DNA of 58,881 nucleotides from Patescibacteria group bacterium (GTDB lineage Bacteria; Patescibacteriota; UBA1384; GWA2-35-9; JBASTP01): positions 1 to 58,881 of the forward strand of contig JBASTP010000001.1 in the NCBI GenBank assembly GCA_049274945.1, written 5' to 3'. The position numbers and the translations under genes are program-made. Positions 27,742 through 31,113 of this stretch are shown here, in pieces (positions within the stretch are counted from its first letter, which is position 1; each line of letters opens with the position of its first letter). Under the pieces are notes generated by a model. The model was not told where the DNA came from. It was given only the letters and a program-made list of their open reading frames with translations, and made no database searches.

Positions 27742-28084
27742 GAACCAAGGAGCAAAAAAACGAGCGTGATTGAAATTTAGTTATGAGACCCAGAATCAAG
27801 GAAAAGTGAGGAGTGGGCACTACACGATTGGTGAAGAACAGAATCAAACCGCGTGGAATCAAGGAAGCAAATGATCTCTTGTCAGCTCTGGCCAGCTCAT
27901 CGCACATGGAATCAAGGAGTCAGGTAAAGGTGCAAAACAGCAATCGGATCCTGATTGCCGAACGTAGAATCAAGGAATAACATCAGTGTATCCCGATGGT
28001 TGCCGACAGAAATCGAGCTGCGTCGAATCAAGGAAGCTAAAAAATACCAAACCAATATGTTGTGTACTGCAAAGAATCAAGGAA
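27742..28084 (-). repeat. short-repeat array 1 (CRISPR-like; 7 copies of TTCCTTGATTC read on the minus strand)
   Basis: Plus-strand GAATCAAGGAA/G starts at 27793, 27856, 27909, 27967, 28025 and 28074. A degenerate promoter-distal copy GAACCAAGGAG is at 27742. Unique spacers are 38-52 nt. Confidence 0.8.
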
Positions 28085-28180
28085 CGCACCCATATACTAC
28101 CAAAATAACCTCCAAACCTCAACCATCTGGTTGACAAATATACTGTTTTATGGTATTCTTTTTGGGCTGTTCGTTGAAAA
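28085..28180. promoter_or_regulatory. divergent promoter region between arrays 1 and 2
   Basis: Plus strand: TTGACA 28131-28136, 17-nt spacer, TATTCT 28154-28159. Minus strand: TTGAGG (rc of 28117-28122), 17-nt spacer, TAGTAT (rc of 28094-28099). Confidence 0.5.
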
Positions 28181-28531
28181 CTCCTTGATTCGACGTGTGG
28201 CCCTACTTTATATTGTCAGTTTGGCCTATCTGGTTCCTTGATTCAACATATAGTACGATATGCTGCGTTCGTCCTGGATTGCTCCTTGATTCTGGATGGG
28301 TTGCTAAAGCTAGAGTCGCGTTCCGCCGTCTCGTTCCTTGATTCGTCGTTGGATCGATCAAGATGCTTTCTGAAGGTGATTGGAGAATTCAGTTTTTCCT
28401 TGATTCGAGGCCTGATAATAACGGTCCGGTAGGTCCCCGATTCGTCGCGTTCGTTTAATCCTTGATTCGATGTCCGGTGATGTGTGCTTCCACGCTTTGA
28501 ATAGGGCTTTTTCATTTCGATTCCTTGATTC
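28181..28531 (+). repeat. short-repeat array 2 (CRISPR-like; 7 copies of YTCCTTGATTC)
   Basis: Copies start at 28181, 28234, 28282, 28334, 28396, 28458 (ATCCTTGATTC) and 28521. Unique spacers are 37-52 nt. Confidence 0.8.
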
Positions 28532-28616
28532 TTCGTATGACACGATAGATCGTCTTAACCAACGGTACTTTGCACTTTTTCGAGCCAACCCAAACTCATG
28601 AAAGGAGTGATGCTAC

Positions 28617-29618
28617 ATGGCAAGAAAGACGACAGAGATGGCAAGAAAGACAGCAAGAGCGGAAAGAGCAGAAAAGGAGGTGGTGGTTAGGCCAGTCGAC
28701 CCCTACATCTATTTCAAGTTTGTAGGGCGTTGGACCGGAATGGTGGGAGGTGTCTCACCATCGATATCGACCACCGAAACCCACCTCGCCAAGATGGTGG
28801 AAGACGAGGAGAAACGACTTCGGAGAGAAGCTGTGAGCAGGCGTCCGTCGCAAGCTCGTGAGGCCGAACCTGTTGCCACCGAAGTGGTCAGCGCCGAGCT
28901 GTCAACGGAAGTTAACGGCAGCGAGTTGGCAGAAGTAGTCGAAGCCGAGATCAAATCCGAACGGCGCAAGTGGCTCGAGGAAGCTCTGAAAGATACGCGG
29001 CTCGATGCCGATGCCAGAACCGTCATCCAGAACGCGCTCAAGGAGCTGAACCCGGCGGAAAAAATCGTCCGCCAGATGCTCAAGATGACGAACACGTTTC
29101 CGAAAAACGGCGGCACAAACTTCTTCATCCCCAAGGCCTGGTTTTACGGCGGCCTCAAGGCGGCGGTCCAGGCCGATGGCCTGTACCCGTACGAGGACGC
29201 CGCCCAACGCCTGGCCAAGCGCTGCGTGGTGATCTACCCCGATCGAATCGATCTGGGAGTGAAAGAGCCGGACAACGTCCACACTGCCAATGTCACCCTC
29301 GGCAGGGTGGGACCCGGCGAAGCGCAATCTTCGATCAAGCGCTTCCACATGGTGCGGCCGCGCCAGGAGCAGTTCATCCTGGTGATTGCGGTGGTGGATG
29401 CGGTGTCCGCGGCTGCGCTCATCGCCAACATGCAACGCGTCTTCACCATCATCGGCAACAACGGCCTTGGGGGCGGGCGCCCGTCCTACGGCCAGTTCGA
29501 GGTCGTGGAATGCCGCCGGTTGCCCAAAAACGATGAGGGTGACCAGGAAGCCAAAGAGCTGATCGCGCAGCTCAGCGCCTCACACGACAACCCGGGCGAC
29601 GATACCGATCTCGAGTAA
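28617..29618 (+). CDS. RAMP-like (Cas7/Cas5/Cas6-type RRM) protein candidate A
   Basis: AAAGGAG ribosome-binding site. Charged N-terminus, FFIPKAWFYGGLKAAV (like the RAMP IPGSSLKGALR motif) and a C-terminal glycine-rich loop NNGLGGGRPSYGQFEV (29463-29498). Paralogous to the next ORF. Confidence 0.5.
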   Translation: MARKTTEMARKTARAERAEKEVVVRPVDPYIYFKFVGRWTGMVGGVSPSISTTETHLAKMVEDEEKRLRREAVSRRPSQAREAEPVATEVVSAELSTEVNGSELAEVVEAEIKSERRKWLEEALKDTRLDADARTVIQNALKELNPAEKIVRQMLKMTNTFPKNGGTNFFIPKAWFYGGLKAAVQADGLYPYEDAAQRLAKRCVVIYPDRIDLGVKEPDNVHTANVTLGRVGPGEAQSSIKRFHMVRPRQEQFILVIAVVDAVSAAALIANMQRVFTIIGNNGLGGGRPSYGQFEVVECRRLPKNDEGDQEAKELIAQLSASHDNPGDDTDLE

Positions 29619-29627
29619 CCGACCAAA

Positions 29628-29638
29628 TTCCTTGATTC
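29628..29638 (+). repeat. solo copy of the array repeat between the two RAMP-like genes
   Basis: TTCCTTGATTC lies 10 nt after the stop of gene A and 3 nt before the ribosome-binding site (AAGGAG 29642-29647) of gene B. Confidence 0.8.
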
Positions 29639-29653
29639 TGAAAGGAGAGCAAA

Positions 29654-30526
29654 ATGCCCGAAAGAGTTGACATAATTCCGGCAAACTGTACCAACTGCTA
29701 CCGCTGCGAGTGGGTGCTGCGCGACGGGAGCCTGTGGGAGGCATCCGTACCGGTCAATACCAGAAGCCTAACTGGCTGGTTTGGCGCCATGCCCTACGAG
29801 AAGAAACAACTCGAACGGGCGCTGGCAGGGGTTCAGGATGAAGCCGAGCAACTCCGCATTGTCCAAGACCACCACGCCCACATAGCCGATAAAGCTGCCA
29901 AGGTGCTCGAAGAAACTACTCGAGGCTTCACGCACCAGGACCAGGATTCCATGATCCCGGGCGATATTCGATTCAAGCGCACCCGGAATCTCTCTTTGTT
30001 TTTCGGCGCCGGGAATATTCTTGGAGCCATCAAGGAGGCAGCCTGGTACCAAACCGATAATCCGGGCACAAAACGCCGGCTGAGCGGCGATCCGCCAAAG
30101 TTGTACCTGCGGCCGGGAAAGGTGGTGATTTTTCGCCCCCACACCGACGGGTATACCAGAATCCCGGTTACCATGGCTGACGGCAGGCACGAGCGCCACA
30201 GCCCACCGGAGGCGCCAGGCCCCAAGAATATGTTCAGGGGCAAGAAGGCCACCTCGGTGTTCGCCGAGTATGTAGGCCCACCGGCCAACTTGGCCTTCTA
30301 CCTATGGGTTGACCCGAAGGCAGCATCCATGGAACAACTTGAACTGTGGTCGCGCGTTGCCGGCGACCTTGGCCTGGGGGGATACCGCCAGATGAGGCAA
30401 GGCCAGTTTAACGTCGTAACGTTTGAAGAACTCGGCGACGATGCCAAACAGCGGCTCCTCCAACAGGGGAGGCAAAAACAGGAGATCGAGCAAATGGAGG
30501 AACTGGTCGCCCAAACCACCCAATAA
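29654..30526 (+). CDS. RAMP-like protein candidate B (paralog of A)
   Basis: CxxCxxC near the N-terminus, GAGNILGAIKEAAWY, KVVIFRP (compare CVVIYPD in A) and a glycine-rich loop DLGLGGYRQMRQGQFNV (30371-30409). Confidence 0.5.
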   Translation: MPERVDIIPANCTNCYRCEWVLRDGSLWEASVPVNTRSLTGWFGAMPYEKKQLERALAGVQDEAEQLRIVQDHHAHIADKAAKVLEETTRGFTHQDQDSMIPGDIRFKRTRNLSLFFGAGNILGAIKEAAWYQTDNPGTKRRLSGDPPKLYLRPGKVVIFRPHTDGYTRIPVTMADGRHERHSPPEAPGPKNMFRGKKATSVFAEYVGPPANLAFYLWVDPKAASMEQLELWSRVAGDLGLGGYRQMRQGQFNVVTFEELGDDAKQRLLQQGRQKQEIEQMEELVAQTTQ

Positions 30527-30543
30527 GGCAAAGACCTACACCA

Positions 30544-30577
30544 ACACCGTGGACCCAGTTGTCCACGGTGTTTTTTT
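30544..30577 (+). terminator. intrinsic terminator after RAMP-like gene B
   Basis: ACACCGTGGAC ccagtt GTCCACGGTGT followed by TTTTTTT. Confidence 0.75.
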
Positions 30578-30611
30578 GCACCCCGAACCGAACTCTGTTC
30601 TGGTTTGGGGA

Positions 30612-30641
30612 TTGACTTTCAGGAAGGATTTCAGATATACT
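30612..30641 (+). promoter_or_regulatory. candidate promoter of array 3
   Basis: TTGACT 30612-30617, 18-nt spacer, TATACT 30636-30641. The first repeat starts 10 nt downstream. Confidence 0.5.
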
Positions 30642-30650
30642 CCAGGTGCG

Positions 30651-31113
30651 TTCCTTGATTCGTCGCAAGACGGGCCGACAACAGACCGGATATTCTGACT
30701 CATTCCTTGATTCTTCGCCATATGACCTATTGGTCTTTTTCTCTTTTCCTTGATTCCAAGCATGATGAGCAGGGCCAGGCCGGTATGATTTGGAATGGAT
30801 CGGAATTTCTCGGTTTAAGCCTAGTTGTTTCCTTGATTCCACGTTGGCTTGGTCCATGATTGTTGATTTGATTTCCTCCTTGATTCCATGCACCGTGAGT
30901 TACTTCCCGTTTTCCTCATCTCCTTCCTTGATTCGACGTGAGATGCCTTCCGCAGCGTTGGTACACACTTTTACCATTCCTTGATTCTTCGTACGGCTGC
31001 CCGGGGTAATCAATTTTAGGCAACGTCTTACTAATGTATGCCGGTCCGATTCCTTGATTCGGTGCTTGTTATCATTCGCTGTTTTACATCGGTCCGCGCT
31101 CATTCCTTGATTC
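30651..31113 (+). repeat. short-repeat array 3 (CRISPR-like; 9 copies of YTCCTTGATTC)
   Basis: Copies start at 30651, 30703, 30746, 30829, 30876 (CTCC...), 30924, 30977, 31050 and 31103. Unique spacers are 32-72 nt. Confidence 0.8.

Follow-up and report, generated by a model that had tools for sequence, protein, structure and literature searches.

Within the 58,881-nt stretch of contig JBASTP010000001.1 from a Patescibacteria group bacterium (hereafter, the window), three arrays of a short repeat are grouped around two adjacent open reading frames (ORFs), ORF A and ORF B. The arrays almost certainly specify guide-type RNAs bound by CRISPR-related RAMP proteins, and the locus as a whole is probably a chromosomal, divergent RNA-guided system of the Viral Interference Programmable Repeat (VIPR) type. 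The VIPR class, in which a RAMP works with an RNA written in a pentanucleotide code, is a better match to the locus than any CRISPR type.

VIPR, for which the type II system of Escherichia phage SUSP1 is used here as the reference (10.64898/2026.04.26.720920; 10.64898/2026.04.26.720927), relies on a small RAMP, Vipr, which is encoded outside CRISPR-cas loci and usually accompanied by an accessory vap gene (10.64898/2026.04.26.720920). Its RNA (vrRNA) consists of 9 to 16 YNNGG pentamers followed by a conserved tail, and the NN dinucleotides form the specificity code, reading double-stranded DNA (dsDNA) while skipping one target base (10.64898/2026.04.26.720920). Seven types have been described, with contiguous "staggered" arrays and variant consensus motifs (NNNGG, YNNNG, and NNNNG), all of which keep a G next to Y (10.64898/2026.04.26.720920). 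In the structure, one protomer holds each pentamer, with Y in a purine-excluding pocket to which R179 contributes and with the residue pairs H17/D177 and R138/W178 reading the two Gs (10.64898/2026.04.26.720927). About a quarter of the described systems are chromosomal, and the 2026 preprints present VIPR as largely phage-borne, single-RAMP, and a possible ancestor of CRISPR effectors.

Three oriented arrays share a short, unstructured delimiter

Exact matches to the 11-nt motif YTCCTTGATTC number 22 in the window; shuffled sequence gives an expectation of 0.05 (maximum in any shuffle, 1). Its 10-mer TCCTTGATTC occurs as 23 exact copies and one degenerate, one-mismatch copy (27742, minus strand); all 24 are confined to 27742-31113, and the remaining five one-mismatch matches are scattered over the window. 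The repeat serves as a delimiter for the following features, given with the predicted promoters and terminators and with their conservation in L001, a related locus from Candidatus Berkelbacteria that has the same three-array layout.

27718-27737, minus strand: predicted intrinsic terminator of array 1, stem GGGTCGCC/GGCGGCCC followed by TTTTGTTTT; kept in L001
27742-28084, minus strand: array 1, six exact delimiters and a degenerate promoter-distal copy, CTCCTTGGTTC, at 27742; six pentamer-lattice guides with units of 49, 58, 58, 53, 63, and 51 nt
28094-28122, minus strand: candidate promoter of array 1, TTGAGG (28122-28117), 17 nt, TAGTAT (28099-28094)
28131-28159, plus strand: predicted promoter shared by array 2 and the ORF A/ORF B operon, TTGACA, 17 nt, TATTCT, the second hexamer being preceded by TG
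28181-28600, plus strand: array 2, seven delimiters (28181-28531); units of 53, 48, 52, 62, 62, and 63 nt
28617-29618, plus strand: ORF A, 333 amino acids, predicted RAMP fold (Cas7/Vipr-like); C-terminal G-loop GLGGGRPSYGQF
29628-29638, plus strand: solo delimiter directly 5' of the ORF B Shine-Dalgarno sequence, TTCCTTGATTC TGAAAGGAGAG
29654-30526, plus strand: ORF B, 290 amino acids, predicted RAMP fold, paralog of ORF A; C-terminal G-loop GLGGYRQMRQGQF
30543-30572, plus strand: predicted terminator of the array 2/ORF A/ORF B operon, from the consensus scan
30612-30641, plus strand: predicted promoter of array 3, TTGACT, 18 nt, TATACT
30651-31113, plus strand: array 3, nine delimiters; units of 52, 43, 83, 47, 48, 53, 73, and 53 nt
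31126-31144, plus strand: predicted terminator of array 3, from the consensus scan; conserved in L001

The original prediction, made from the window alone, had the strands, the start coordinates, and the 43- to 83-nt periods of this cluster right, as it did the junction common to arrays 1 and 3, at which GGTGCG abuts TTCCTTGATTC, and the degeneracy of the promoter-distal repeat of array 1 (CTCCTTGGTTC). Its count of 24 copies of YTCCTTGATTC holds for the cluster and does not quite fit the core as listed, since the copy at 28458 begins with A and falls outside that motif. It had also assigned every array its own promoter and terminator. Promoters and terminators were called by a consensus scan, and their basis is consensus matching; such elements were found for arrays 1 and 3, the array 1 promoter being under the scan threshold, read from the sequence, and conserved in L001. 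Array 2 has no terminator and continues into ORF A, with which it is therefore predicted to be cotranscribed. The pyrimidine lattice of its last unit (see below) goes on for about 13 pentamers, as far as the ORF A ribosome-binding site. The array 1 transcript would begin a few nucleotides ahead of the GGTGCG junction. The evidence supports non-coding arrays that point the same way as their promoters and terminators: repeat orientation switches exactly with the predicted direction of transcription, and a coding reading was rejected on the absence of a period-3 signal.

The delimiter is 11 nt long and has no hairpin. The predicted array 3 RNA folds no more strongly than shuffled sequences (z = +0.47), on which account a structured small-RNA reading was rejected, and an Rfam scan of the window returned no family at the gathering score, hammerhead included. 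A solo delimiter occupies the equivalent place upstream of ORF B in L001 and in two further related loci, L009 and L002.

In several units, another GAYTC lies 8 nt upstream of the delimiter, so that the sequence reads GAYTC-CTY-GATTC (window 27904-27919, 28513-28531, and 31042-31060; L001 798-811 and 1015-1028; L011 135-149; L009 2807-2821). Here part of the core is duplicated in tandem at a distance of exactly one "long step" (see below), which may be a trace of delimiter or unit origin or of slippage.

The intervals are quantized pentamer lattices

Taking a unit as delimiter plus spacer, from repeat to repeat, 121 units were available from nine loci. Their lengths equal 3 modulo 5 (5n+3) in 78 of the 121, with peaks at 43, 48, 53, 58, 63, 68, 73, and 83 nt. 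The Rayleigh test gives a p value of ~7e-24 at period 5 and no signal at 3, 7, 10, or 10.5, with R being 0.66 at period 5 versus 0.33 at period 6. The Rayleigh statistic cannot separate steps of 5.0 nt from steps of 5.25 nt; the peaks at 43, 63, 73, and 83 suit 5.0.

The same period is written in the sequence of the intervals. Counting from the C of GATTC, a pyrimidine stands at every fifth base through to the next delimiter, and it does so on the strand predicted to be transcribed. Among 568 internal pentamers framed as N-N-x-x-Y, position 5 is a pyrimidine in 93% and G in 1%, positions 1 and 2 are of near-uniform composition, and G makes up 41% of position 3 and 16% of position 4. The first pentamer past the delimiter is more constrained, reading n-n-y-G-Y with the G in 95%. 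Each guide here contains 6 to 14 pentamers. The conserved motif around the delimiter, Y-T-C-C-T-Y-G-A-T-T-C-n-n-n-G-Y (11 to 15 nt), adds 8 nt to the lattice instead of 5, and unit lengths take the form 5n+3 because the delimiter inserts this single 8-nt step (from the C at -4 to the C at +4).

Together, length quantization and the pyrimidine lattice rule out ordinary CRISPR spacers, and they revise the original prediction in several respects: the intervening sequences, described there as unique spacers, are not free-form and consist of pentamers in tandem, (N N x x Y)n; the spacing, described as irregular, is quantized; and the 11-mer, listed there as a CRISPR-like repeat much below canonical length, is best viewed not as a shortened CRISPR repeat but as an element that delimits the guides within the lattice or serves as their handle. 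Scanning genome-wide for stretches with Y at every fifth base, which could have marked orphan guides, was uninformative, its background being high because coding strands are purine rich.

ORF A and ORF B are predicted RAMP paralogs

Sequence comparison of ORF A and ORF B with Pfam, NCBIfam, PADLOC, PHROGs, and PDB sequences gave only chance-level matches, including the best PADLOC match of ORF B (Csm4, E = 0.063), and the Pfam scan of both proteins detected neither a DNA-binding domain nor a Nop domain. Their affinity emerges from structure prediction. AlphaFold (AF2) models were built from nine-sequence alignments, with a predicted local distance difference test (pLDDT) score of 69 overall and ~90 in the core for ORF A and of 80.7 for ORF B. 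When the ORF A model was compared with the PDB by Foldseek, all 50 of the 50 matches listed were CRISPR RAMPs (Cmr, Csm3, Cas7-11, and Csf2), at probabilities of up to 0.98. The ORF B model had 15 PDB matches with E below 1e-3 and probability 1.0, to type VII Cas7, Csm3, and Csm4-length chains. Its best matches overall were found in the viral library BFVD, among proteins of 194 to 252 amino acids (E = 1e-10 to 1e-5), including A0A822ZZ46 (E = 1.1e-10) and a 194-amino-acid Siphoviridae "Cas system-associated RAMP superfamily protein" (E = 7e-7); no CRISPR RAMP in the PDB reached E values this good. On the evidence of the models, both ORFs are therefore RAMP folds lying outside any CRISPR-cas locus, an identity that the original prediction had overlooked, as it had the quantized unit lengths and the pyrimidine lattice. 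Both contain long helical insertions, and aligning the two by hhalign (E = 1e-4 over 153 columns) indicates that they are distant paralogs.

For comparison with Vipr itself, we located the SUSP1 VIPR locus in NC_028808.2 and built a seven-sequence Vipr profile from SUSP1 and its IMG/VR relatives. ORF A aligned with this profile at E = 2e-4 over 16 columns, confined to the G-loop; for ORF B, the values were E = 0.016 and 42 columns. The Y-contacting R179 of Vipr corresponds to R288 in ORF A, which is invariant, and the positions of D177 and W178 are occupied in ORF A by Gly (or by Asp at the second position). Keeping the Arg while replacing the two G-reading residues by Gly fits a code that has lost GG and retained Y. 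In ORF B, Gly stands at D177 and a conserved aromatic residue, Tyr or Phe, at W178, and R179 is matched by Arg, or by His in a single homolog; the aromatic residue fits the G that precedes Y in 95% of the pentamers immediately following a delimiter.

The family is very rare. Each protein has nine relatives among 5.8 billion proteins, and a profile search of 1.84 billion representative proteins gave 13 clusters, from Candidatus Berkelbacteria (MBI3261360.1 and MBI3261361.1), Candidatus Sungiibacteriota, and metagenome assemblies, some of them from groundwater. An ORF A profile search found one genome locus and five metagenome loci; the ORF B profile search of genome contigs and viral contigs found no related loci.

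Arrays and proteins occur together

Every related locus with flanking DNA that was examined carries homologs of ORF A and ORF B adjoining each other and arrays (L001 to L003, L005, L009 to L011, L014, and L015). Co-occurrence of the arrays with homologs of both adjacent genes, which the original prediction had proposed to look for, is thus borne out in all nine loci. No third conserved gene was found across the related loci.

The delimiter differs from lineage to lineage outside a GATTC core that stays invariant, being TTCCTTGATTC in the window, L001, and L003, CTTCTCGATTC in L002, CATCTCCTCGATTC in L005, and CACCTCRTTGATTC in L010. L014 has a different delimiter, ATCATKGRTGC, and array spacings of the same kind (43, 49, 53, 55, and 58 nt). 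Given that the sequence differs while the geometry is kept, the delimiter appears to coevolve with the proteins. The L014 arrays, at 340-950 and 1915-1995, flank an ORF A subfamily of ~45% identity and come from the same organism as L013. In L005 (groundwater contig OBEQ012529683.1; 3540-4400 and, on the minus strand, 270-520), many degenerate delimiters produce apparent units of 94 to 142 nt, which resolve to 43 to 58 nt with a relaxed motif; an ORF that overlaps the array there (408-821, minus strand) is probably spurious.

The two bases after each pyrimidine are selectively conserved

Comparison of the window with L001 gives a view of how the guides evolve. The ORF A and ORF B genes of the two loci are 81% identical and tuf is 92% identical; leaders and terminators align, and array 1 retains partial synteny. 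Most units cannot be aligned, and those that are shared have changed position, in some cases from one array to another. Five pairs of units can clearly be recognized as orthologous guides. Across them, differences at pentamer positions 1 to 5 number 3, 4, 14, 14, and 10, and identity is 83/88 (94%) at NN versus 60/88 (68%) at positions 3 and 4 (Fisher p = 1.1e-5). Two of the shared guides are 91 to 92% identical, about like tuf. Because NN is selectively conserved, the two bases following each pyrimidine appear to be selected, information-bearing positions, much as the VIPR code would have them.

Beyond this pair, more distant loci have no guides in common, and L002 and L009 have wholly different repertoires at ~79% gene identity. 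Contigs with identical proteins carry identical arrays, which indicates that such contigs come from the same populations. As far as these alignments tell, shared spacers are inherited and diverge by point mutation; unshared ones may have been replaced or may simply have drifted.

A working model

On these grounds, the system could operate as follows. The arrays would be transcribed into unstructured RNAs made of N-N-x-x-Y pentamers. ORF A, as the Vipr/Cas7-like protein, would polymerize into a filament on the RNA in which every pentamer is occupied by a single protomer that holds the pyrimidine in a purine-excluding pocket and offers the following NN for gapped pairing with a target. ORF B would bind the delimiter as a delimiter-binding or capping subunit, setting the phase or boundary of each guide, and may read the G that adjoins Y in the pentamer directly following it. 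By analogy with characterized VIPR, the target would be dsDNA read with a skipped base, and the outcome would be repression of, or interference with, phages or other mobile elements. The system might also regulate itself, through the lattice that reaches the ORF A ribosome-binding site and the solo delimiter that abuts the ORF B Shine-Dalgarno sequence; the latter could be an ORF B binding site used for autoregulation or for processing.

Target searches and alternative readings

In contiguous matching, blastn-short of all guides against the window produced only chance matches, as did blastn with the entire island as query against 50,697 phage and 72,556 plasmid records, contiguous protospacer matches having E values of at least 6e-3. 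BLAST of the spacers, which the original prediction had suggested, yielded no target in phage, plasmid, or window DNA. A gapped self-search of the window (NN with 0 to 3 skipped bases) did no better than shuffled dinucleotide order, and exact NNx scans of IMG/VR with three long guides gave zero matches, a weak negative because exact matching is far stricter than the NN match of at least 80% used in the preprint. Taken together, these negatives are weakened by exact matching and by the sparse sampling of phages of the candidate phyla radiation (CPR). One perfect match, the sole 12/12 NN-skip-1 match outside the island, lies at 58005-58021 on the minus strand (array 3 unit 2, pattern TTNCANGANATNTCNTT), in a stretch without a convincing ORF; with an expectation of 0.01 per pattern, or ~0.2 over 20 guides, it is probably due to chance.

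The empty target searches are what would be expected if the locus encoded a non-targeting ribonucleoprotein, in which the RNA only scaffolds the assembly of a RAMP filament, or acts as a regulatory sponge for it, and the variable bases are unconstrained filler. The near-random composition at positions 1 to 4 and the complete difference in guide repertoire between L002 and L009 are compatible with this reading, and the lattice over the ORF A 5' untranslated region, together with the solo delimiter at the ORF B ribosome-binding site, suggests RNA-protein feedback. However, unconstrained filler would not show 94% identity at NN versus 68% at the adjoining positions, which implies selection on the NN sequence, nor would two guides be conserved about as well as tuf; moreover, the homologous lattice of VIPR is an experimentally shown guide. 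We regard a non-targeting role of this kind as unlikely.

A highly reduced derivative of class 1 CRISPR-Cas (type III/IV/VII-like), with the 11-mer as a minimal repeat or handle and contiguous spacers on a Cas7/Cas5-like backbone, can point to the Csm3, Cmr, type VII Cas7, and Csm4-length chains that head the PDB matches, to the weak Csm4 match of ORF B in PADLOC, to the repeat-spacer-like layout with its leaders and degenerate distal repeat, and to the fact that most spacers differ between related genomes. Its difficulties are the following: (i) a pyrimidine at 93% of fifth bases and lengths that change in steps of five are not expected of captured protospacers; (ii) conservation in shared guides is confined to two of every five positions; (iii) cas1, cas2, cas6, cas10, and large-subunit genes are absent from the scanned genes; (iv) the repeat is only 11 nt and lacks a hairpin; and (v) ORF B is nearer to viral-library RAMPs than to any CRISPR RAMP. 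This derivation is very unlikely in our judgment. The CRISPR-like reading of the original prediction accordingly survives in part: RNA guides and RAMP proteins stand, and spacers and repeats in the CRISPR sense do not.

Some plasmid partition sites typically have units of 11 bp, and the clustering of short direct repeats around two genes and a divergent promoter could suggest dsDNA binding sites (iterons, operators, or centromere-like sites) for a DNA-binding protein; but the orientation that flips exactly with predicted transcription, the strand-specific pyrimidine lattice filling the whole inter-repeat interval, the 5.0-nt steps, and RAMP folds in place of a helix-turn-helix, ribbon-helix-helix, or ParB protein make this iteron/operator alternative, which the original prediction had named as its own refutation, highly improbable. 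Spacing by helical phasing was likewise rejected, signals at periods 10 and 10.5 being absent.

Genomic setting and neighboring elements

The island lies between fusA (25563-27671) and tuf (33758-34939), that is, in the str operon, and the surrounding housekeeping genes include gyrB, gyrA, infB, cdaA, obg, rpoB/C, rpsL, and rpsG. Pfam scans of 23 ORFs across the window (58.9 kb), outside the ribosomal-protein stretch at ~38-55 kb, found no cas1, cas2, cas6, cas10, or large-subunit gene, although cas1/cas2 could lie at a distant place in the genome. The Pfam marks of called genes in the related loci include none of these either. Among the 23 ORFs, this agrees with the original prediction, which had listed cas1 and cas2 as absent.

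Between the array 3 terminator and tuf lies a segment of ~2.3 kb (31152-33453) that is missing from L001. It is flanked by a 63-nt direct repeat (31152-31214 and 33391-33453; 90% identical) that carries a -35 box and a tuf-like start, ATGGCAGA, and its appearance is that of a mobile element inserted site-specifically at the tuf 5' end. The ORF inside it (31846-33015, 389 amino acids) has weak IS110 C-terminal domain matches (NF033542, E = 1.5e-4; PF02371, E = 0.14). Since the array 3 terminator of L001 is directly followed by tuf, this IS110-like ORF appears to be an unrelated insertion. Up- and downstream of it are two copies of a TATAAT promoter with a ~170-nt GC-rich non-coding segment (31245-31410 and 33095-33260), 1850 nt apart and 72 to 88% identical; these are a candidate element-associated non-coding RNA, possibly bridge-RNA-like, and match no Rfam family at the gathering score. 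A 79-amino-acid ORF between the second repeat copy and tuf (33442-33681), a coiled coil by eye, has the same start motif as tuf, ATGGCAGA. Elsewhere in the window, an NYN-domain (RNase-like) protein and a Fic/DOC-family protein are encoded at 37662-38180 and 55809-56897, respectively, with no evident link to the island.

Comparison with known systems

Outside VIPR, three kinds of system resemble the locus in part. TIGR-Tas systems, which Faure and colleagues are said to have described in 2025, reportedly pair Nop-domain Tas proteins with regular units of ~36 nt containing two spacers each. By that description, the locus resembles them in having non-CRISPR arrays of short conserved elements and variable guide segments beside a small effector gene, and differs in that its proteins have a predicted RAMP fold instead of a Nop domain and in that TIGR units are regular and lack a pentamer lattice. 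HRAMP, attributed to work by Makarova and colleagues in 2019, is said to be a derived class 1 system of haloarchaea with diverged Cas5 and Cas7, no array, and extra large and nuclease subunits; going by this account, the highly diverged RAMP genes, the lack of an adaptation module, and the position outside canonical CRISPR loci are shared, whereas the extensive arrays and the presence of only two genes set the present locus apart.

Class 1 CRISPR-Cas (Csm3/Cmr4/Cas7 with a Cas5-family cap; types III, IV, and VII) shares more with the locus: the RAMP fold with its glycine-rich loop, two specialized RAMP paralogs that would fit a backbone and a handle-binding subunit, repeat-delimited arrays with leaders, and, as predicted here, guide ribonucleoproteins in which each subunit accounts for a fixed number of nucleotides. 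That number is six for Cas7 backbones, and the locus differs in a periodicity of 5 rather than 6 nt, with spacers that are sequence-constrained lattices. It differs further in a hairpin-less repeat of 11 nt versus ~23 to 50 nt, in having no Cas1/2, Cas6, Cas10/Cas8, or Cas11 in the scanned genes, and in the lack of any Pfam or NCBIfam sequence match to a Cas family.

VIPR provides the closest parallel. Like it, the locus has a stand-alone RAMP outside CRISPR-cas in a minimal two-gene operon with non-coding RNA genes on both sides, and multiple guides per locus; the RNA is a series of tandem pentamers in which a conserved pyrimidine is followed by two hypervariable bases, with pentamer counts that overlap (6 to 14 here versus 9 to 16 in VIPR). 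The G-loop motif G-x-G-x-x-R-P-x-[YF]-G-x-F is also held in common, with the Y-contacting Arg conserved. Several differences concern setting and format: the guides, ~20 in three arrays, are separated by an unstructured delimiter of 11 to 15 nt that shifts the lattice by 3 nt, in contrast to the ~40-nt pseudoknot tail or hammerhead ribozyme of VIPR, and the host is a CPR bacterium with the island in its str operon, not a phage or prophage.

Other points weigh against assignment to the VIPR type. There are two RAMP paralogs of 290 to 333 amino acids versus one of ~195 amino acids plus vap, and the second gene is a RAMP paralog in place of a vap-type DNA-binding or nuclease gene. GG is lost, leaving a Y-only lattice whose consensus is not among the variants of the preprint, and no structured 3' tail or ribozyme is present. 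By profile alignment, homology to bona fide Vipr is confined to the G-loop, a motif general to RAMPs, and membership of the Vipr clade is unproven on sequence. No target was found by contiguous or NNx searches, and the NN conservation comes from five guide pairs in one genome pair. With these points counted, we still consider a divergent VIPR-type system the likely identity of the locus.

Such an identity suggests that the pentanucleotide-code principle also exists in a rare chromosomal form in CPR bacteria, with duplicated RAMPs, CRISPR-like arrays, and a Y-only code. If so, the locus would be a natural test of which pentamer positions are read by the protein, because the G-loop substitutions match the loss of GG. 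It would likewise be a candidate intermediate for the stage of CRISPR evolution at which a single RAMP gave way to several, a compact format for arrays of many guides without ribozymes or structured tails that is of engineering interest, and an extra defense or regulatory system for organisms that seldom carry CRISPR.

A more specific possibility, which we advance tentatively and hold to be doubtful as yet, is that the locus represents a distinct VIPR type, absent from the 2026 preprints, that bridges single-RAMP VIPR and the multi-RAMP effectors of class 1 CRISPR. Under this scenario, duplication of an ancestral RAMP would have yielded ORF A as the backbone subunit and ORF B as the one that binds the handle, a short protein-read delimiter would have replaced the structured tail and so given rise to true repeat-guide arrays, and the pentamer code would have relaxed to a single pyrimidine. 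The locus might then be a living architectural intermediate between the two, with a Cas5-like cap and a Cas7-like backbone assembled on a repeat-derived handle.

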